Below, piece after piece: positions 3,627-63,903 of a stretch of DNA of 64,000 nt (position 1 is its first letter; every line of letters begins with the position of its first letter). The translations under genes and the position numbers were made by a program. This stretch comes from Methanocaldococcus sp. 28A (lineage in GTDB: Archaea; AGJL01; Methanococci; Methanococcales; Methanocaldococcaceae): assembly GCA_049852185.1 (NCBI GenBank), contig CP187540.1, one strand, 5' to 3'. The notes under the pieces are model-generated. The model was not told the DNA's origin, ran no database searches, and was given only the letters and a program-made list of their open reading frames with translations.

Positions 3627-3893
3627 GGGTATGGGGGCTATAGCCCGCCTTCTGTAATTTCGGTGACATTCGGCTAAGCGCCGATACCGGCTTGCACCCC
3701 GGGTAGGGAAGATGCCCGTTTCACCGGTTCTCCGGAAGTCCTCAACTTTTACTATCATCGTCATCTCTTCCGGAGCCGTGTCGTTTCTGTTGCATCTTCC
3801 GCCCCTTCTCAGGGGACACTACCCATAAATGGGGTGGGCGGAACTTCCTCCCCTCTTATCTTAAAGAGGGGAAAGTCACCAGCCCCCTTACCC
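3627..3893 (-). ncRNA. rnpB: RNase P RNA, archaeal type M
   Basis: Minus strand has GAGGAAGUUCCGCCC and ACAGAAGGCGGGCUAU conserved regions; terminal P1 helix GGGUAAGGGGGC/GCCCCCAUACCC. Confidence 0.95.
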
Positions 3894-3953
3894 GCGTAAC
3901 TTTCTTAACTTAAAATTTAAATATATAAATATTATCTTCTAAAATAATAAAAA

Positions 3954-4072
3954 TGGCCGGCGGCGTCGCCCCTTTCCCGCCAGATGGCAGTACTCGGGGC
4001 ATCGCTGGGGGGCTTAACTTCCGAGTTCGGGATGGGTTCGGGTGTGGCCCCCCCGCTATGACCGCCGTACCA
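3954..4072 (-). rRNA. rrf: 5S rRNA
   Basis: UGGUACGGCGGUCAUAGCG...CCCAUCCCGAACUCGGAAGUUAAGC...GCCGCCGGCCA. Confidence 0.97.
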
Positions 4073-4094
4073 AGAAATAAATAGTGCCTTTTTA

Positions 4095-4135
4095 GGCCAT
4101 GCATAGGCTTCCACATCCGCTTAGTGTCTGGATAC
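4095..4135 (-). other. 3' arm of the 23S pre-rRNA processing stem (bulge-helix-bulge)
   Basis: Near-perfect inverted repeat with 7140-7180; GGUG/CACU 4-bp helix flanked by 3-nt bulges AAA and AAG. Confidence 0.85.
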
Positions 4136-7139
<3,004 letters not shown>

Positions 7140-7238
7140 GTATCCAGATTTCACCGGGATGTGGAAGCCTATGCATGGCCCTCATGTTTTTCAGGCCCTT
7201 CACCTGCAACTCTTTAGAGTCGCAGGCTGCATATATAG

Positions 7239-7311
7239 TGGACCCGGTGGGATTTGAACCCACGGCCTCCGGCTTGCAAGGCCGGCGCTCTCCCAGCTGA
7301 GCTACGGGCCC
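7239..7311 (-). tRNA. tRNA-Ala (UGC), CCA not encoded
   Basis: GGGCCCGUAGCUCAGCUGGGAGAGCGCCGGCCUUGCAAGCCGGAGGCCGUGGGUUCAAAUCCCACCGGGUCCA cloverleaf in the 16S-23S spacer. Confidence 0.97.
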
Positions 7312-7375
7312 ACTTTCCCTATGAGGCAAGCCCACGACTGGTTTGGTGCCCCGCAGCAACCAGCACTTTTTTCTC

Positions 7376-8857
<1,482 letters not shown>

Positions 8858-8900
8858 TAAGTAGGAGCACGGTCGCAAGAAAGGATAAACCTTTCTTGCG

Positions 8901-8944
8901 GCTGGTTGCTGCGGGGTTTCACCACCAGTCGTGGGCTTGCCTCA
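8901..8944 (-). other. 5' arm of the 16S pre-rRNA processing stem
   Basis: Inverted repeat with 7322-7364 (TGAGGCAAGCCCACGACTGGT...CCCCGCAGCAACCAGC). Confidence 0.8.
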
Positions 8945-9167
8945 GCCCCAACCCCTTCGGATTGGGGACGCATCCTTCGAGTGCATCCTATAGTGAGAAG
9001 TTGTTATATGTAATGTTTTTAGGTATTGAATTAATAATATTATGCCCAATAAAAAATATAGTTCATACGATAAATTAATTAATGATAGGGGATATCATAA
9101 AATAAACAGAAAATTTAATATTTTATAATATCAAATAGTTATTAAAAAAATAGGGGATGATAGAACA

Positions 9168-9930
9168 ATGAACGACATAAGATTGTCGGCTATAAAATCA
9201 TTTAATGAATTTAACGAATTCATAAACAAAGTTTTGCGAATTAATCTAAGGATTTATCGAGTTGAAGATTATACAAGAGGATTTATAAAGGCAATGTCGA
9301 ATAATACATATTTAGAGACCATTAGCAAGCTAAATTATCCATCGGCAGACTCTTACTATCGATATATAAATAAGGCAGGTAATTCTATGTTTAAAGAAAT
9401 TTATAAATCTTTTGTTAAAAATATATTTAATAATTTAAAAAAACAATAGAAATTTTTGCCTATCGATAGATACGCATTATTATGGTAATAATTTAGATTT
9501 AGAATTAATTTATGAATATAGAAAAGAGAGGAGCAGTACTGGTTCATATAAATATATAGCTGCTACTTTACATACTGAAGATTTTTCGTTAATAATCTAT
9601 TGTAATTATTCTTGTTAGATGCGTTATTCATAACTTTTGGATTAAAATAAAAGAAGTGTTTCTTTAAAATTCTTCATCGTCGAAATATGTAAGTTATTAG
9701 ATGAATTCGATTATTCAATCATGGTTATGCGTAATACTCGGTTGTATATGTCTAATGCATATTCGTAGATACTGTAGAACATTTAAACAATAAACATATC
9801 TTTCTATAAAGTAATTAAAGGAGGGTAGTAAAGAACTAATAAAGAATGGACTATCATAATCACACCGTCAGTAAATAAAGATAACATTTTTAATATATTC
9901 AATAAAAAATTTGTTACTGCGAAAGTCCTA
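9168..9930 (+). mobile_element. Decayed ISH3-like DDE transposase remnant ending in a terminal repeat
   Basis: 93-aa ORF with PSAD motif, then frameshifted PID and YYG...YRKERSSTGSYKYIAA segments; ends in CTGCGAAAGTCCTA (9917-9930). Confidence 0.6.
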
Positions 9931-9953
9931 TCTTTAAAAAATCTTTAAAAAAG

Positions 9954-10022
9954 ATTTGGCTCAGCTGCGGGAGTAGTCATCATCTAAATAATCAGATAGC
10001 GAAATTGTCATCATCGCCAAAT
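9954..10022 (-). ncRNA. Box C/D methylation guide sRNA
   Basis: Terminal stem AUUUGGC/GCCAAAU; C AUGAUGA, guide CAAUUUCGCUAU, D' CUGA, C' AUGAUGA, guide CUACUCCCGCAG, D CUGA. Confidence 0.93.
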
Positions 10023-44843: not shown

Positions 44844-45383
44844 TTATTCTTCTAAACATCTTTTATGTTCTTCAATATCAAAATCGATTTCATAATATTT
44901 ATAGATTTCATCTGCAAGGTTTTCAGCAAATTCCTTAGCTTTTTCTTTACTTTCAAACCCTAAAACCCAAATTCCCCACATTGTTTCCCAATTGGATGAG
45001 AGCTTACAACTCTCTTTTATAGGATTTTTTCCATTAAATTTGTGGATAACTATCTTTTTATTCTTCCAATCAATATATAATGCATAGTTTTCTCCTTCAA
45101 TGTTAATATTCTCTATGTTATCTCCATAAGCTTTATTTTTAACATTCTTTTCTAAGTAAATTTTAATGAATTTGTTTAATGGTAGTCTTGAAATCTTAAC
45201 TCTTACATTTTTTAACATCTCTTCTAATGCTTCCTCAATTTCCTCCTCCTCAATCCAATTTAAAGTTATTGGTGTTAAAATTGTTATATATCTATCTCCG
45301 TCTAGTTCTATATCTAAAATTTTTAAGTATTCATTATAAATGCCAAATTGCTGTAATATTTTTATTAGATTCTTCATATTCAT
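44844..45383 (-). CDS. Hypothetical protein translationally coupled to the HEPN-like gene
   Basis: 179-aa acidic ORF; ATGA overlap with the upstream stop at 45380-45383. Confidence 0.75.
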
Positions 45384-45679
45384 TCCCCTAACATTATATA
45401 AAGCTTTAAGAGTTTTTCAATAATTTCAAGCTTTTCAATAATGATTGCTATAAGTTGATTCTCTTTATAGCTATACAGTTCCTGCCTTATTATATGCAAA
45501 TAGTGAAAAAATTTTAATTTTAGATAGCTCTCTTTAAATTCCTCCCAATGTTCCTCATAATGCTTTCCATGCTCTAATCTTGGGGATAAAATATAATCAG
45601 ACGCATGCCTATAAAGCTTTAAATCCATCAAAAAGTTTCTAATCTTTTTGTTGAAATTTGCATATCTCTCTTTATTATG

Positions 45680-45967
45680 CCGTTTGAAATAGTTTAATTT
45701 TTCATATGCAAATATATACATTTATAGATTATCATTACCAAAAAGTTTATATGTGAATATATATAAGTTTTAAATAGAAATTATAACTGCCCCAAATGCG
45801 GGAGTGAAATGGAGTCCCAAGAGAGTAGTCATAGCCAAATTTTAATTGATGGAAGGAGCTGGGGTCCCCTCGACAGGGGCAGAGACCTAAGCCAATGAAC
45901 CCAGAGGGTTGATGACGCCCAAGTCCAACGTGGATTTATATATAATTGTCCATGTTGGACAGACCCC
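45680..45967 (+). mobile_element. Non-autonomous IS607/TnpB-derived mini-element
   Basis: CC at both junctions versus a single CC in the rebuilt empty site; TnpB-like remnants CPKCGSEMESQE and MEGAGVPSTGAET*; left end has a second copy at 63852-63905. Confidence 0.75.
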
Positions 45968-45985
45968 AATCTTCTATATTTTCTC
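45850..45985 (+). ncRNA. Putative omegaRNA (HgcC/sotRNA-like) with host-derived guide; limits approximate
   Basis: GC-rich hairpins CCCCU-cgac-AGGGG, AACCC-aga-GGGUU and GUCCAACGUGGA/UCCAUGUUGGAC overlapping the TnpB 3' remnant; upstream TATA-like boxes at 45740-45775. Confidence 0.6.
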
Positions 45986-46128
45986 TAATATAAAACTCAA
46001 ATGCATTTAGCAGATATAGCATTCCATAATAAAATCTTGACACAAAAGTTCTCAAATCAAATTCTTTTAATGCATTTATACAGCTATCTAAAAAATGAAT
46101 ACATTCTTTTAAGTATGTATTGTTTAGG

Positions 46129-47406
46129 TTATGCATTCTTTCCATCACCTAAGACATAAACTTTAAATCCTTCTTTTTCCCAAGCTGCCCTATTTATTAT
46201 ATTTTTTGTATCAAGGATTATTTTATTTTTTACTTTTGAGGCAATATTTTTAATATCTTTTTTATTAAAATCTTTGTATTCATTGTGGTCTGCCAATACA
46301 ACAATAATATCTGCTTTATCAACAGCTTCATCTAAACTACATAGTGGATAGATAAAATCTCTCGCATAGCTATCATAGCATTTAACTTCAAAACCATCTT
46401 CAATTAATTTTTTGACGACCTTTTCAGCAGGACTTTCTCTTGTATCATCTACATTTCCTTTATATGTTACTCCAAATATTGCCACTTTTCCAGTATCTTT
46501 TTTTATTATTTTTTTAATCTTCTCAACGACAAATAGTGGCATTGAATCATTTATTTCTCTTGCAGTTCTTATAAGCATAGCATTTTTTGATTTCTCTACA
46601 ATAAACCATGGGTCTATGCTTATACAATGCCCTCCAACTCCAGGACCTGGTTTTAAAATATTAACTCTTGGATGTTTATTAGCTAAGCTAATTGCTTCCC
46701 AAACATCAATGCCAATTTCTTCTGCAATTTTTGCAAATTCGTTGGCTAAGGCAATATTAACATCTCTATAAGTATTTTCCATTAACTTAACCATTTCTGC
46801 TGTTTTGGCGTCAGTTAAATATATCTTTCCAGTAACAAAGGTTTTGTAAATCTCTTTTGCCATCTCAGCAGATTTTTCATCAACTCCTCCAATAACTCTG
46901 TCGTTTTCAACCAATTCTTTTAATATATTTCCAGGTAAAACCCTTTCTGGACAGTGAGCTAAATAAATTTTTTTATCTTTTGATAAATTTTTATAAATAT
47001 CGTCAGTAGTTCCTGGGGGTATTGTACTCTCTATAATAATTAGATTTCCATCCTCAAGATAGGGCTTTATGTTTTCAATAGCCTTATGCAAATAGCTTAA
47101 ATCACATCTTTTTTCTCCATCACACTCTATGCAAGGTGTAGGTACACAAATAATATAAATATCTGCTTTATCTGGTTTTGTTTGCACTTTTAAATTTCCA
47201 GAGTTTATAGCTCCCTTAACTAATGTCATTAAATCCTTCTCTGTAGTTTTAAAGCTTAATTCTTTAATCTCTTTTACTCTTTTTTCATTAATATCTACAC
47301 CTATAACATCAAATCCATGTATTGCTAACATTGAAGCTGTAGGTAATCCTATGTAACCTAATCCAATTACACATATTCTTTTTCCATTATTATTTTTCTT
47401 TACCAT
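46129..47406 (-). CDS. wecC: UDP-N-acetyl-D-mannosamine dehydrogenase
   Basis: [41 protein letters not shown]. Confidence 0.93.
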
Positions 47407-63844: not shown

Positions 63845-63903
63845 TAAATATTTATCCATAAATGTCTATCTTTGTCTATAAAAAATTAATCTGTTTCAAA
63901 CGG
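63845..63903 (-). mobile_element. Left end of a second IS607-like element copy
   Basis: 45/54 ungapped identity with 45678-45731; ATAGACA/ATAGACA/ATGGATA repeats at 10-bp spacing. Confidence 0.75.

Follow-up and report, generated by a model that had tools for sequence, protein, structure and literature searches.

A mobile, protein-less derivative of a tnpB-only insertion sequence in Methanocaldococcus sp. 28A and its candidate stand-alone omegaRNA

A 64,000-nt stretch of the genome of Methanocaldococcus sp. 28A (the window) carries, at 45682-45967 on the + strand, a 286-nt element without a protein of its own that sits between the two parts of a broken gene. The element is mobile, and alignment to full-length insertion sequences (ISs) of the same genome identifies it as a non-autonomous deletion derivative, that is, a miniature inverted-repeat or palindrome-associated transposable element (MITE or PATE), of a tnpB-only, IS1341-like IS of the IS200/IS605 superfamily. 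Its most likely function, to which we assign a probability of roughly 0.6, would be that of a stand-alone omegaRNA that takes its right flank as guide and is used in trans by a TnpB protein. This functional reading is plausible and fits published models. The source genome is AT-rich, measures 1.56 Mb and has a Methanococcales-type rRNA operon and RNase P RNA.

Borders and insertion site

The borders of the element were drawn from a BLAST search of 45400-46300 against its own genome and from a search for its flanks in 40 relatives. Homology between copies within the genome extends from ~45678-45680 to 45967-45969. In 10 of the 40 relatives the flanks join directly, with an identical 2-nt overlap, in two more they nearly do so, and in none of the 40 is the element present at the orthologous site. 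The empty-site junction in the relatives joins ...TTATTATGCC to AATCTTC..., and in the nearest relative (G011), whose flanks are 97% and 93% identical, the empty site was read directly as ...ctctctttattatgcc followed by aatcttctatattttctc.... These empty sites show the element to be mobile and fix it as 45682-45967, inserted 3' of a short conserved motif, TGCC, without target-site duplication. One ambiguity attaches to this result: because the element terminates in CC, the junction slides by 2 nt, and a fixed 2-bp duplication of CC would also fit. An earlier reading made without database searches (the sequence-only reading) had placed the borders at 45735-45990; the element is real, but a start at 45735 marks only its promoter.

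The interrupted gene lies on the - strand and is split between W61 and H62; its orthologue in G011 is an intact 160-aa open reading frame (ORF; L042:1320-1802). The intact orthologue has neither a Pfam HEPN match at E <=10 nor an NCBIfam match, leaving the description of its mRNA as HEPN-like unsupported. Both left ends in the window are preceded by TGCC, at 45678-81 and ahead of a left-end scrap at 63901 (- strand), and the proposal of a TGCC-like motif beside the left end is borne out over the copies compared, where the left flank is mostly TGCC but also AGCC, CGCC, TACC or TTCC, which gives NDCC. The features of the element and its immediate surroundings are as follows.

45380-45681, - strand: 3' part of the interrupted 160-aa gene
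45678-45681, + strand: TGCC target motif, presumed transposon-adjacent motif (TAM); part of the host gene and present in the G011 empty site
45682-45739, + strand: left end (LE), GTTTGAAAYWGTTTAATT..., decayed left arm of a subterminal inverted repeat, from homology between copies
45740-45781, + strand: predicted tnpB promoter, with an A-rich run resembling a B recognition element (BRE), TTTATATG at 45746-53, TATATAAG at 45760-67 and TTTTAAATA at 45768-76
45782-45828, + strand: hairpin H1, from the CPxCG zinc-ribbon codons of tnpB (BLAST to tnpB), with its 3' arm eroded here
45829-45848, + strand: AT-rich linker, the least conserved part
45849-45967, + strand: core, an omegaRNA-like scaffold plus right end (RE), 119 nt, from homology to the IS 3' region
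45861-45866 with 45962-45967, + strand: core helix P1
45877-45880 with 45917-45920, + strand: core helix P2
45892-45907, + strand: hairpin of the core resembling a kink-loop (K-loop)
45910-45915, + strand: TGATGA of the core
45923-45934 with 45949-45960, + strand: terminal hairpin P5 of the core, 12 bp, ending 7 nt before the right end
45968-45985, + strand: presumed guide from the flank, AATCTTCTATATTTTCTC, placed by position only as the first bases past the right end
45968-46148, - strand: 5' part of the interrupted 160-aa gene

Descent from full-length insertion sequences

The element region yields 26 BLAST matches in its own genome, a repeat family of a size that puts its sequence features far beyond chance. 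Six copies are complete, all of them located after TGCC: the window copy and those at C1:638519-638850, 957098-957445, 1226543-1226890, 1265341-1265662 and 1425758-1426042. Partial copies and many solo left-end and right-end scraps are found as well. Two full-length relatives, IS A (~C1:1519049-1520550) and IS B (~C1:632167-633700), are 89% alike and encode proteins of 444 and 407 aa, and neither carries tnpA. The proteins are TnpBs according to NCBIfam NF040570 (110.5 bits, cut-off 100) and also match PF01385 and PF07282 (OrfB_IS605 and Cas12f1-like_TNB).

When aligned to IS A and IS B, the element retains the LE with the tnpB promoter, the zinc-ribbon hairpin, and then everything from the codons IMGGSG through the right end, and three internal deletions account for the removal of tnpB. 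Both ends of the element are thereby homologous to ISs of the same genome while the protein is deleted, which is the composition of a protein-less non-autonomous element. The zinc-ribbon scrap at 45787-45822 reads CPKCGSEMESQE and is 86-89% identical (BLAST) to three tnpB loci of the genome, at C1:632572-632607, 1519407-1519441 and 1077691-1077726. The core corresponds by homology to the final ~160-300 nt of the full-length IS, a stretch that includes the 3' end of tnpB; as in an omegaRNA, the tnpB 3' end and the right end are combined in a scaffold that ends at the element boundary. No own-strand ORF of at least 40 aa lies inside the element, and all overlapping ORFs are on the - strand. The sequence-only reading had held that the protein was deleted while the promoter and the RNA part were kept, which the alignment to IS A and IS B confirms. 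Among the grounds on which it would fall it had named a lack of homology to tnpB 3' regions, and this homology is present. It had also called for an intact tnpB in the genome, which holds two such genes (444 and 407 aa).

The ends of the family are not those of a classical IS200/IS605 element, in which imperfect subterminal hairpins are present at both ends, on the same strand, and terminal inverted repeats are missing. A strong hairpin is found at the right end (P5 folded as DNA, z -4.58, with 0 of 200 shuffles equally stable), and LE and RE are related by a subterminal inverted repeat of ATAGACA/TGTCTAT units, which extends over 25 nt at 96% identity in IS A and 17 nt at 94% in the copy c957; in the window copy no inverted repeat is found at seed 8. 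Because of this non-classical end anatomy the element is filed in the superfamily as tnpB-only and IS1341-like rather than as a classical IS200/IS605 PATE.

Anatomy and conservation of the RNA-like core

Every sequence item listed in the sequence-only reading is present in the window. The two TATA-like boxes are found at 45740-45752 (AAAAAGTTTATAT) and 45768-45776 (TTTTAAATA), the latter stemming from a 4-nt insertion private to the window copy; the promoter boxes conserved in the family are TTTATATR and TATATAAG. The segment 45740-45781 presumably acts as a promoter, as it aligns with the sequence ahead of the tnpB ATG in both full-length ISs and two of its boxes are conserved in the copies of other genomes. 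The GC content rises to 0.62 in a GC-rich island against a background of 0.2-0.3, and the AATGA word is located at 45895-45899. Helix P1 closes the scaffold exactly at the element edge, pairing its last 6 nt, a predicted layout that is the anatomy of an omegaRNA with the flank as guide. Inspected by eye, the hairpin at 45892-45907, CC-AAU-GA-ACCCA-GA-GG, has its words arranged as in a K-loop, and in most relatives CC-RAU-GA...YGA-GG is found beneath it; a plain hairpin takes its place in type II MITEs and in ISs of group 1 (both defined below). The GAGA/UGAUGA internal loop was also considered as a canonical kink-turn (k-turn) and set aside, the geometry failing to fit by eye and the match being one of words only.

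A covariance model built from nine own-genome copies was searched in 41 Methanococcales genomes and found the family in 18 of them, in two families and four genera, with 42 matches in one genome. In genome G008 (assembly 89% complete) there are 13 model matches versus one decayed tnpB. Twenty further loci were examined for their architecture, which is of at least three types.

Type I (including the window copy): LE, promoter, H1, linker and core
Type II (5 loci, G028): promoter joined straight to the core at ATGGGTGGAGC, without H1
Type III (2 loci, G023): promoter and core ~100 nt apart, with other sequence in between, without H1

The left part is longer in two further loci. A TTTATATA-type promoter is retained in all architectures, as is the core between ATGGGnGGAGCTGGGGT (ATGGGnGGAGC) and GGACAGACCCC. 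The mean identity between genomes, calculated over 19 type I copies, is highest in the core (0.83), followed by the LE (0.77), the promoter and H1 (0.68 each), the linker (0.53) and the flanks (~0.30).

Base pairs were counted over 34 core sequences, seven of 41 matches (L008, L070, L074, L075, L082, L086 and L088) having been dropped because they were truncated or had a mislocated 5' anchor. In copies without a 47-nt module of two hairpins, MAFFT set the 5' 17 nt in the wrong place; these bases were moved by script, so that the counts for P1 use our own register.

P1, GGGGUY with the last six bases GACCCC: 182 of 188 cells paired
P2, GGGCG/CGCCC: 144 of 170 cells paired
P4, CUCCC/GGGAG: 119 of 124 cells paired
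P5, terminal hairpin: 398 of 403 cells paired

Pairing thus amounts to 85-99% per helix and drops to 28-77% on shifting the partner one column along. Two-sided exchanges occur in P2 (GC/AT), P4 (CG/TA/AT) and P5 (CG/TA). Covariation of P2 is seen in full-length copies too (GGGAC/GUCC, GGGGU/ACCC), and the P2 variants GGAUG/CAUCC and GGGAA/UUCCC are confined to protein-less copies, being absent from the 10 full-length copies read. In H1, the outer stems covary between MITE subfamilies (CUGCCCC/GGGGCAG, AUGCCUC/GAGGCAU, CCCACUU/GAGUGGG), as does the inner stem (GGGA/UCCC versus AGGU/ACCU), with the loops GAUG, UGGAG and AAG constant; these subfamilies have one left end and junction in common, and the H1 stems covary with respect to the full-length IS as well. 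A conserved secondary structure with covariation, as looked for in a TnpB omegaRNA, is therefore present in P2, P4, P5 and H1. A helix predicted by RNAalifold from nine own-genome copies (GGGGCAGUUAUUAUC/GGUUGAUGACGCCC), which competes with H1, was rejected, as types II and III lack its 5' arm. Taken together, the kept promoter, the core as the best conserved part, the retention of distal helices and the compensations found only in MITEs argue for selection on the RNA and point to an RNA module under selection in protein-less copies.

This RNA family is absent from Rfam 15. The HgcC model (RF00062) has no match at E <=10 on 45500-46200, and its best match in the genome, located elsewhere, reaches 24.8 bits against a gathering threshold of 50 bits, so that membership in HgcC, a family that the sequence-only reading had brought in, fails by covariance model. 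No Rfam family is found on five loci of the family at E <=0.01, no Rfam C/D model passes on the element, and the UUCA tetraloop has no match in it. A match to HgcG was discarded as noise (11.8 bits, cut-off 77).

Guides, targets and proposed mechanism

The presumed guide runs antisense to the split gene's 5' fragment, and here the sequence-only reading had the geometry right (element on the + strand, gene on the - strand). It had further suggested that dispersed copies could form a guide library for a trans-acting TnpB or act as antisense regulators. Regulation at other sites finds no support: for 16 right-end guides there is no secondary site for the first 16 nt with <=2 mismatches after a ..CC motif, except for two 2-mismatch sites for two guides of full-length-type right ends. 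Going by this search, each guide would sensibly target nothing but the empty allele of its own locus. The element itself ends in CCCC, which, set against NDCC, would let a TAM reader tell an empty site from a filled one. An exact second copy of the 16 nt flanking the IS A right end is found at C1:574491 (- strand), preceded by CCTT, and is probably a repeated host sequence.

In the mechanism proposed here, the retained promoter would start transcription near 45776-45790, and the RNA would fold into a scaffold that is closed by P1 (GGGGUC/GACCCC) at the element edge. The transcript would read on into the flank, of which ~16-20 nt (AAUCUUCUAUAUUUUC...) would serve as guide. A TnpB encoded at another locus of the genome would then load the MITE RNA and recognise TGCC plus AATCTTCTATATTTTC, the sequence of the empty allele, whether excision has left that allele behind or other copies of the chromosome carry it. 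The MITE would in this manner live off its relatives, parasitising their transposase as well as their guide-RNA nuclease.

Candidate partner proteins

A relative of the TnpB of IS A is encoded in 15 of the 41 genomes at E <=1e-20. The alignment comprises 19 TnpBs of the family, two more rows being unrelated ORFs, and the RuvC-I Asp (GVDSN) and RuvC-II Glu (FEDL) are retained in these 19. The full-length elements form two groups, ~60% identical in protein. The P3/P4 hairpin of the MITE, CC-AAUGA-ACCCA-GA-GG, corresponds to that of group 2, some group-1 elements contain the 47-nt module, and the last bases of the MITE ahead of the guide differ from both groups. Overall core identity was tried as an indicator of the MITE parent and is undiscriminating, at 0.74-0.88 to both groups.

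The C-terminal tail of TnpB is translated from the omegaRNA core. The tails (L092-L119) are conserved as protein across the ~60%-identical groups, with the motifs GGxGV..G.EV, LMxPNPxV and VYxVDxNG, pointing to a possible dual coding of RNA scaffold and protein tail. Three of 15 tails, that of IS A among them, have Asn in place of the Asp of VDxNG. The 47-nt module, which may be present or absent both in full-length ISs (IS B; L110, L117) and in MITEs, shifts the frame and truncates the TnpB tail. The locus C1:200521-200603, examined as a free-standing 47-nt module, was rejected, being a 5'-truncated full-length IS.

Weighing of the explanations

A number of observations weigh against the use of this RNA as a guide by TnpB. 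The first group concerns the partner. The DRD motif of ISDra2 reads NRQ in the family TnpBs, or DRQ in three, and Gln stands at the RuvC-III Asp position in 19 of 19; the catalytic Asp361 of ISDra2 TnpB faces Gln356 in the HMMER alignment, and cleavage is not assured. The two intact TnpBs of the genome both belong to group 1, whose scaffold has a different P3/P4 hairpin than the MITE and whose right-end tip is GGGAGAACCYC versus GGACAGACCCC in the MITE, and group 2 is represented in this genome by a pseudogene only, with 4 stops (C1:352099-353003). As to the transposase, the single Y1 tnpA of the genome (C1:830896-831249, PF01797) lies inside another IS, no LE/RE motif of the MITE family is found near it, and the left end has no significant hairpin (z 0.38 here and 0.01 in c957).

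The window copy itself is worn. The hairpin region that the sequence-only reading called apparently intact is so in P1, P2 and P5, as is the promoter, but the copy lacks the 47-nt two-hairpin module and the paired 8+8-nt extension of the P3/P4 stem, and erosion has affected its H1 3' arm and its subterminal inverted repeat. Of the 5 other complete own-genome copies, 4 have the module, as does IS B; IS A, partial copy c65 and many copies in other places lack it. The loss of the 8+8-nt extension is common to the window copy and four own-genome copies. Lastly, the copies are kin, so that the pair counts overstate independence and part of the conservation reflects shared descent, and covariation does not separate RNA structure from DNA pairing of the top strand.

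An alternative that we consider unlikely, though it deserves a serious hearing, is that the element is nothing but a decaying non-autonomous transposon, its structure kept for transposition in cis as single-stranded DNA or its copies simply young, and its RNA without a role. The erosion just described would be expected in that case, as would the abundance of solo left-end and right-end scraps in the genome, and both the terminal hairpin, which is equally stable as DNA and RNA, and the covariation, which fits RNA or top-strand DNA pairing alike, would be accommodated. IS200/IS605 transposases need end hairpins; P2 and P4, however, sit 50-110 nt from the end, deeper than such hairpins would be needed. 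Decay also sits poorly with a core that is conserved above the left end (0.83 versus 0.77), with a promoter that is found in all three architectures at a constant distance from the RNA start region, and with the existence of compensatory pairs specific to MITEs.

Two further possibilities retain the guide RNA and change the task of the protein. The first, which we regard as doubtful, is that the protein-less copies are an RNA lineage of their own in Methanococcales, whose own features include a potential L7Ae-binding hairpin of K-loop/k-turn-like form, an extra 5' hairpin and compensatory pairs confined to MITEs; outnumbering intact tnpB in some genomes, they would serve the Gln-bearing TnpB, which would act as an RNA-guided DNA binder or nickase and, in place of plain homing, mark or guard insertion sites in a polyploid archaeon. 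The second, to which we give less credence again, is that the RNA guides a DNA-binding, non-cutting TnpB of the TldR kind, and that the copies mark or repress sites. The Gln in place of the RuvC-III Asp would agree with it, given that the proteins are intact and multi-copy, and inactivated TnpBs recruited for regulation are among the cases described in the sections of PMC10691335 drawn on here. The same sections describe TnpB branches with a rearranged RuvC-III, some of them nearly confined to archaea, and take conserved substitutions in mobile branches as altered but active sites, which, together with the retained RuvC-I Asp and RuvC-II Glu, guides that match only the empty allele and a family that is plainly mobile, argues against a purely regulatory protein. 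Least probable is a portable promoter whose read-through antisense RNA regulates the split gene or its neighbours, with the scaffold as a stabilising 5' structure: a strong predicted BRE/TATA-like promoter does face outward, and the element and the split gene do lie on opposite strands, but the gene was already destroyed by the insertion, leaving antisense control without evident use, and guides and flanks have no second genomic match.

Other features

Several further traces of the family were recorded. The scrap at 63850-63901 of the window (- strand) is a solo left end of the same family with AAACTGCC ahead of it, and the sequence beyond it resembles the right flank of the partial copy c1512 (C1:1512787-1512828), an arrangement that suggests an internally deleted copy in a repeated gene. 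At C1:134458-134599, two right-end scraps of the family lie in inverted orientation and overlap one another. Contig C2 (10393 nt) has three identical weak matches, at 830-870, 4726-4766 and 8622-8662, with a spacing of 3896 nt, and looks like a head-to-tail concatemer of a ~3.9-kb circle.

The Y1 tnpA noted above (region C1:829308-831249) adjoins a different tnpB, which has two zinc-ribbon matches 317 nt apart. A weak HgcC match lies directly 3' of this tnpB, and that other IS may have an HgcC-like RNA as its omegaRNA. Elsewhere in the window, 3629-10018 (- strand) contains the rRNA operon (16S, tRNA, 23S, 5S), the RNase P RNA and the C/D small RNA sR39.

Comparison with known systems

The concept of a stand-alone omegaRNA has already been published; the example and its details are new, not the principle. 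No paper on this Methanococcales MITE family was found in a search whose coverage of subscription journals was thin. The element offers a cleanly resolved archaeal case of a mobile, protein-less candidate guide-RNA gene, with an exact empty site, a TGCC-type motif and a retained promoter. The presence of the family in two methanogen families and its absence from Rfam 15 make it useful as an annotation model for GC-rich islands in AT-rich genomes. It would also serve as a test bed for the sharing of omegaRNAs in trans in archaea, for cutting by TnpBs with Gln at RuvC-III, and for the question of who moves tnpB-only elements that have inverted repeats in place of a left-end hairpin.

The RNA HgcC of Methanocaldococcus jannaschii resembles the element in being a GC-rich RNA of AT-rich hyperthermophilic methanogens, and differs from it in that the RF00062 model has no match on the window element. 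HgcC is said to go back to Klein et al. in 2002, and the 1996 M. jannaschii genome paper reportedly describes ISAMJ1 elements with inverted repeats. A link between HgcC and IS right ends is drawn in the text of Gomes-Filho et al. (PMC4615843).

In Halobacterium salinarum, a transcribed PATE-derived RNA, VNG_R0052, and a truncated tnpB remnant with a sense overlapping transcript (sotRNA) are described in the same report (Gomes-Filho et al. 2015, PMC4615843), whose authors propose the RNA as the reason that such remnants persist. As in the family studied here, these are archaeal RNAs from the 3' end of IS1341-type tnpB, and from protein-less fused ends or truncated tnpB remnants. VNG_R0052 is transcribed and has a growth effect on overexpression; the candidate RNA of the window element belongs to a different sequence family. 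The PATEs of Geobacillus stearothermophilus, which according to the preprint text 'often encode omegaRNAs' that need TnpB in trans (Meers et al., 10.1101/2023.03.14.532601), are likewise minimal non-autonomous elements made of a left and a right end and inserted beside a TAM. They have palindromic ends and a known Y1 TnpA in the same genome; the family described here has no LE hairpin, a subterminal inverted repeat and no matching transposase among the proteins found.

The closest parallel is with the stand-alone omegaRNAs of the OMEGA systems, which work with a compatible effector encoded at another locus (Altae-Tran et al. 2021, in the summary given by PMC10691335). In both cases, an omegaRNA locus has been mobilised without an effector or transposase gene, effector-bearing copies are present in the genome, and the guide, here a presumed one, lies just outside the element end. 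Action in trans was demonstrated there and is a proposal from sequence here. The present family further differs in its host, a hyperthermophilic methanogen, in the Gln at the RuvC-III position of its TnpBs, and in the fusion of the tnpB promoter almost directly to the RNA.

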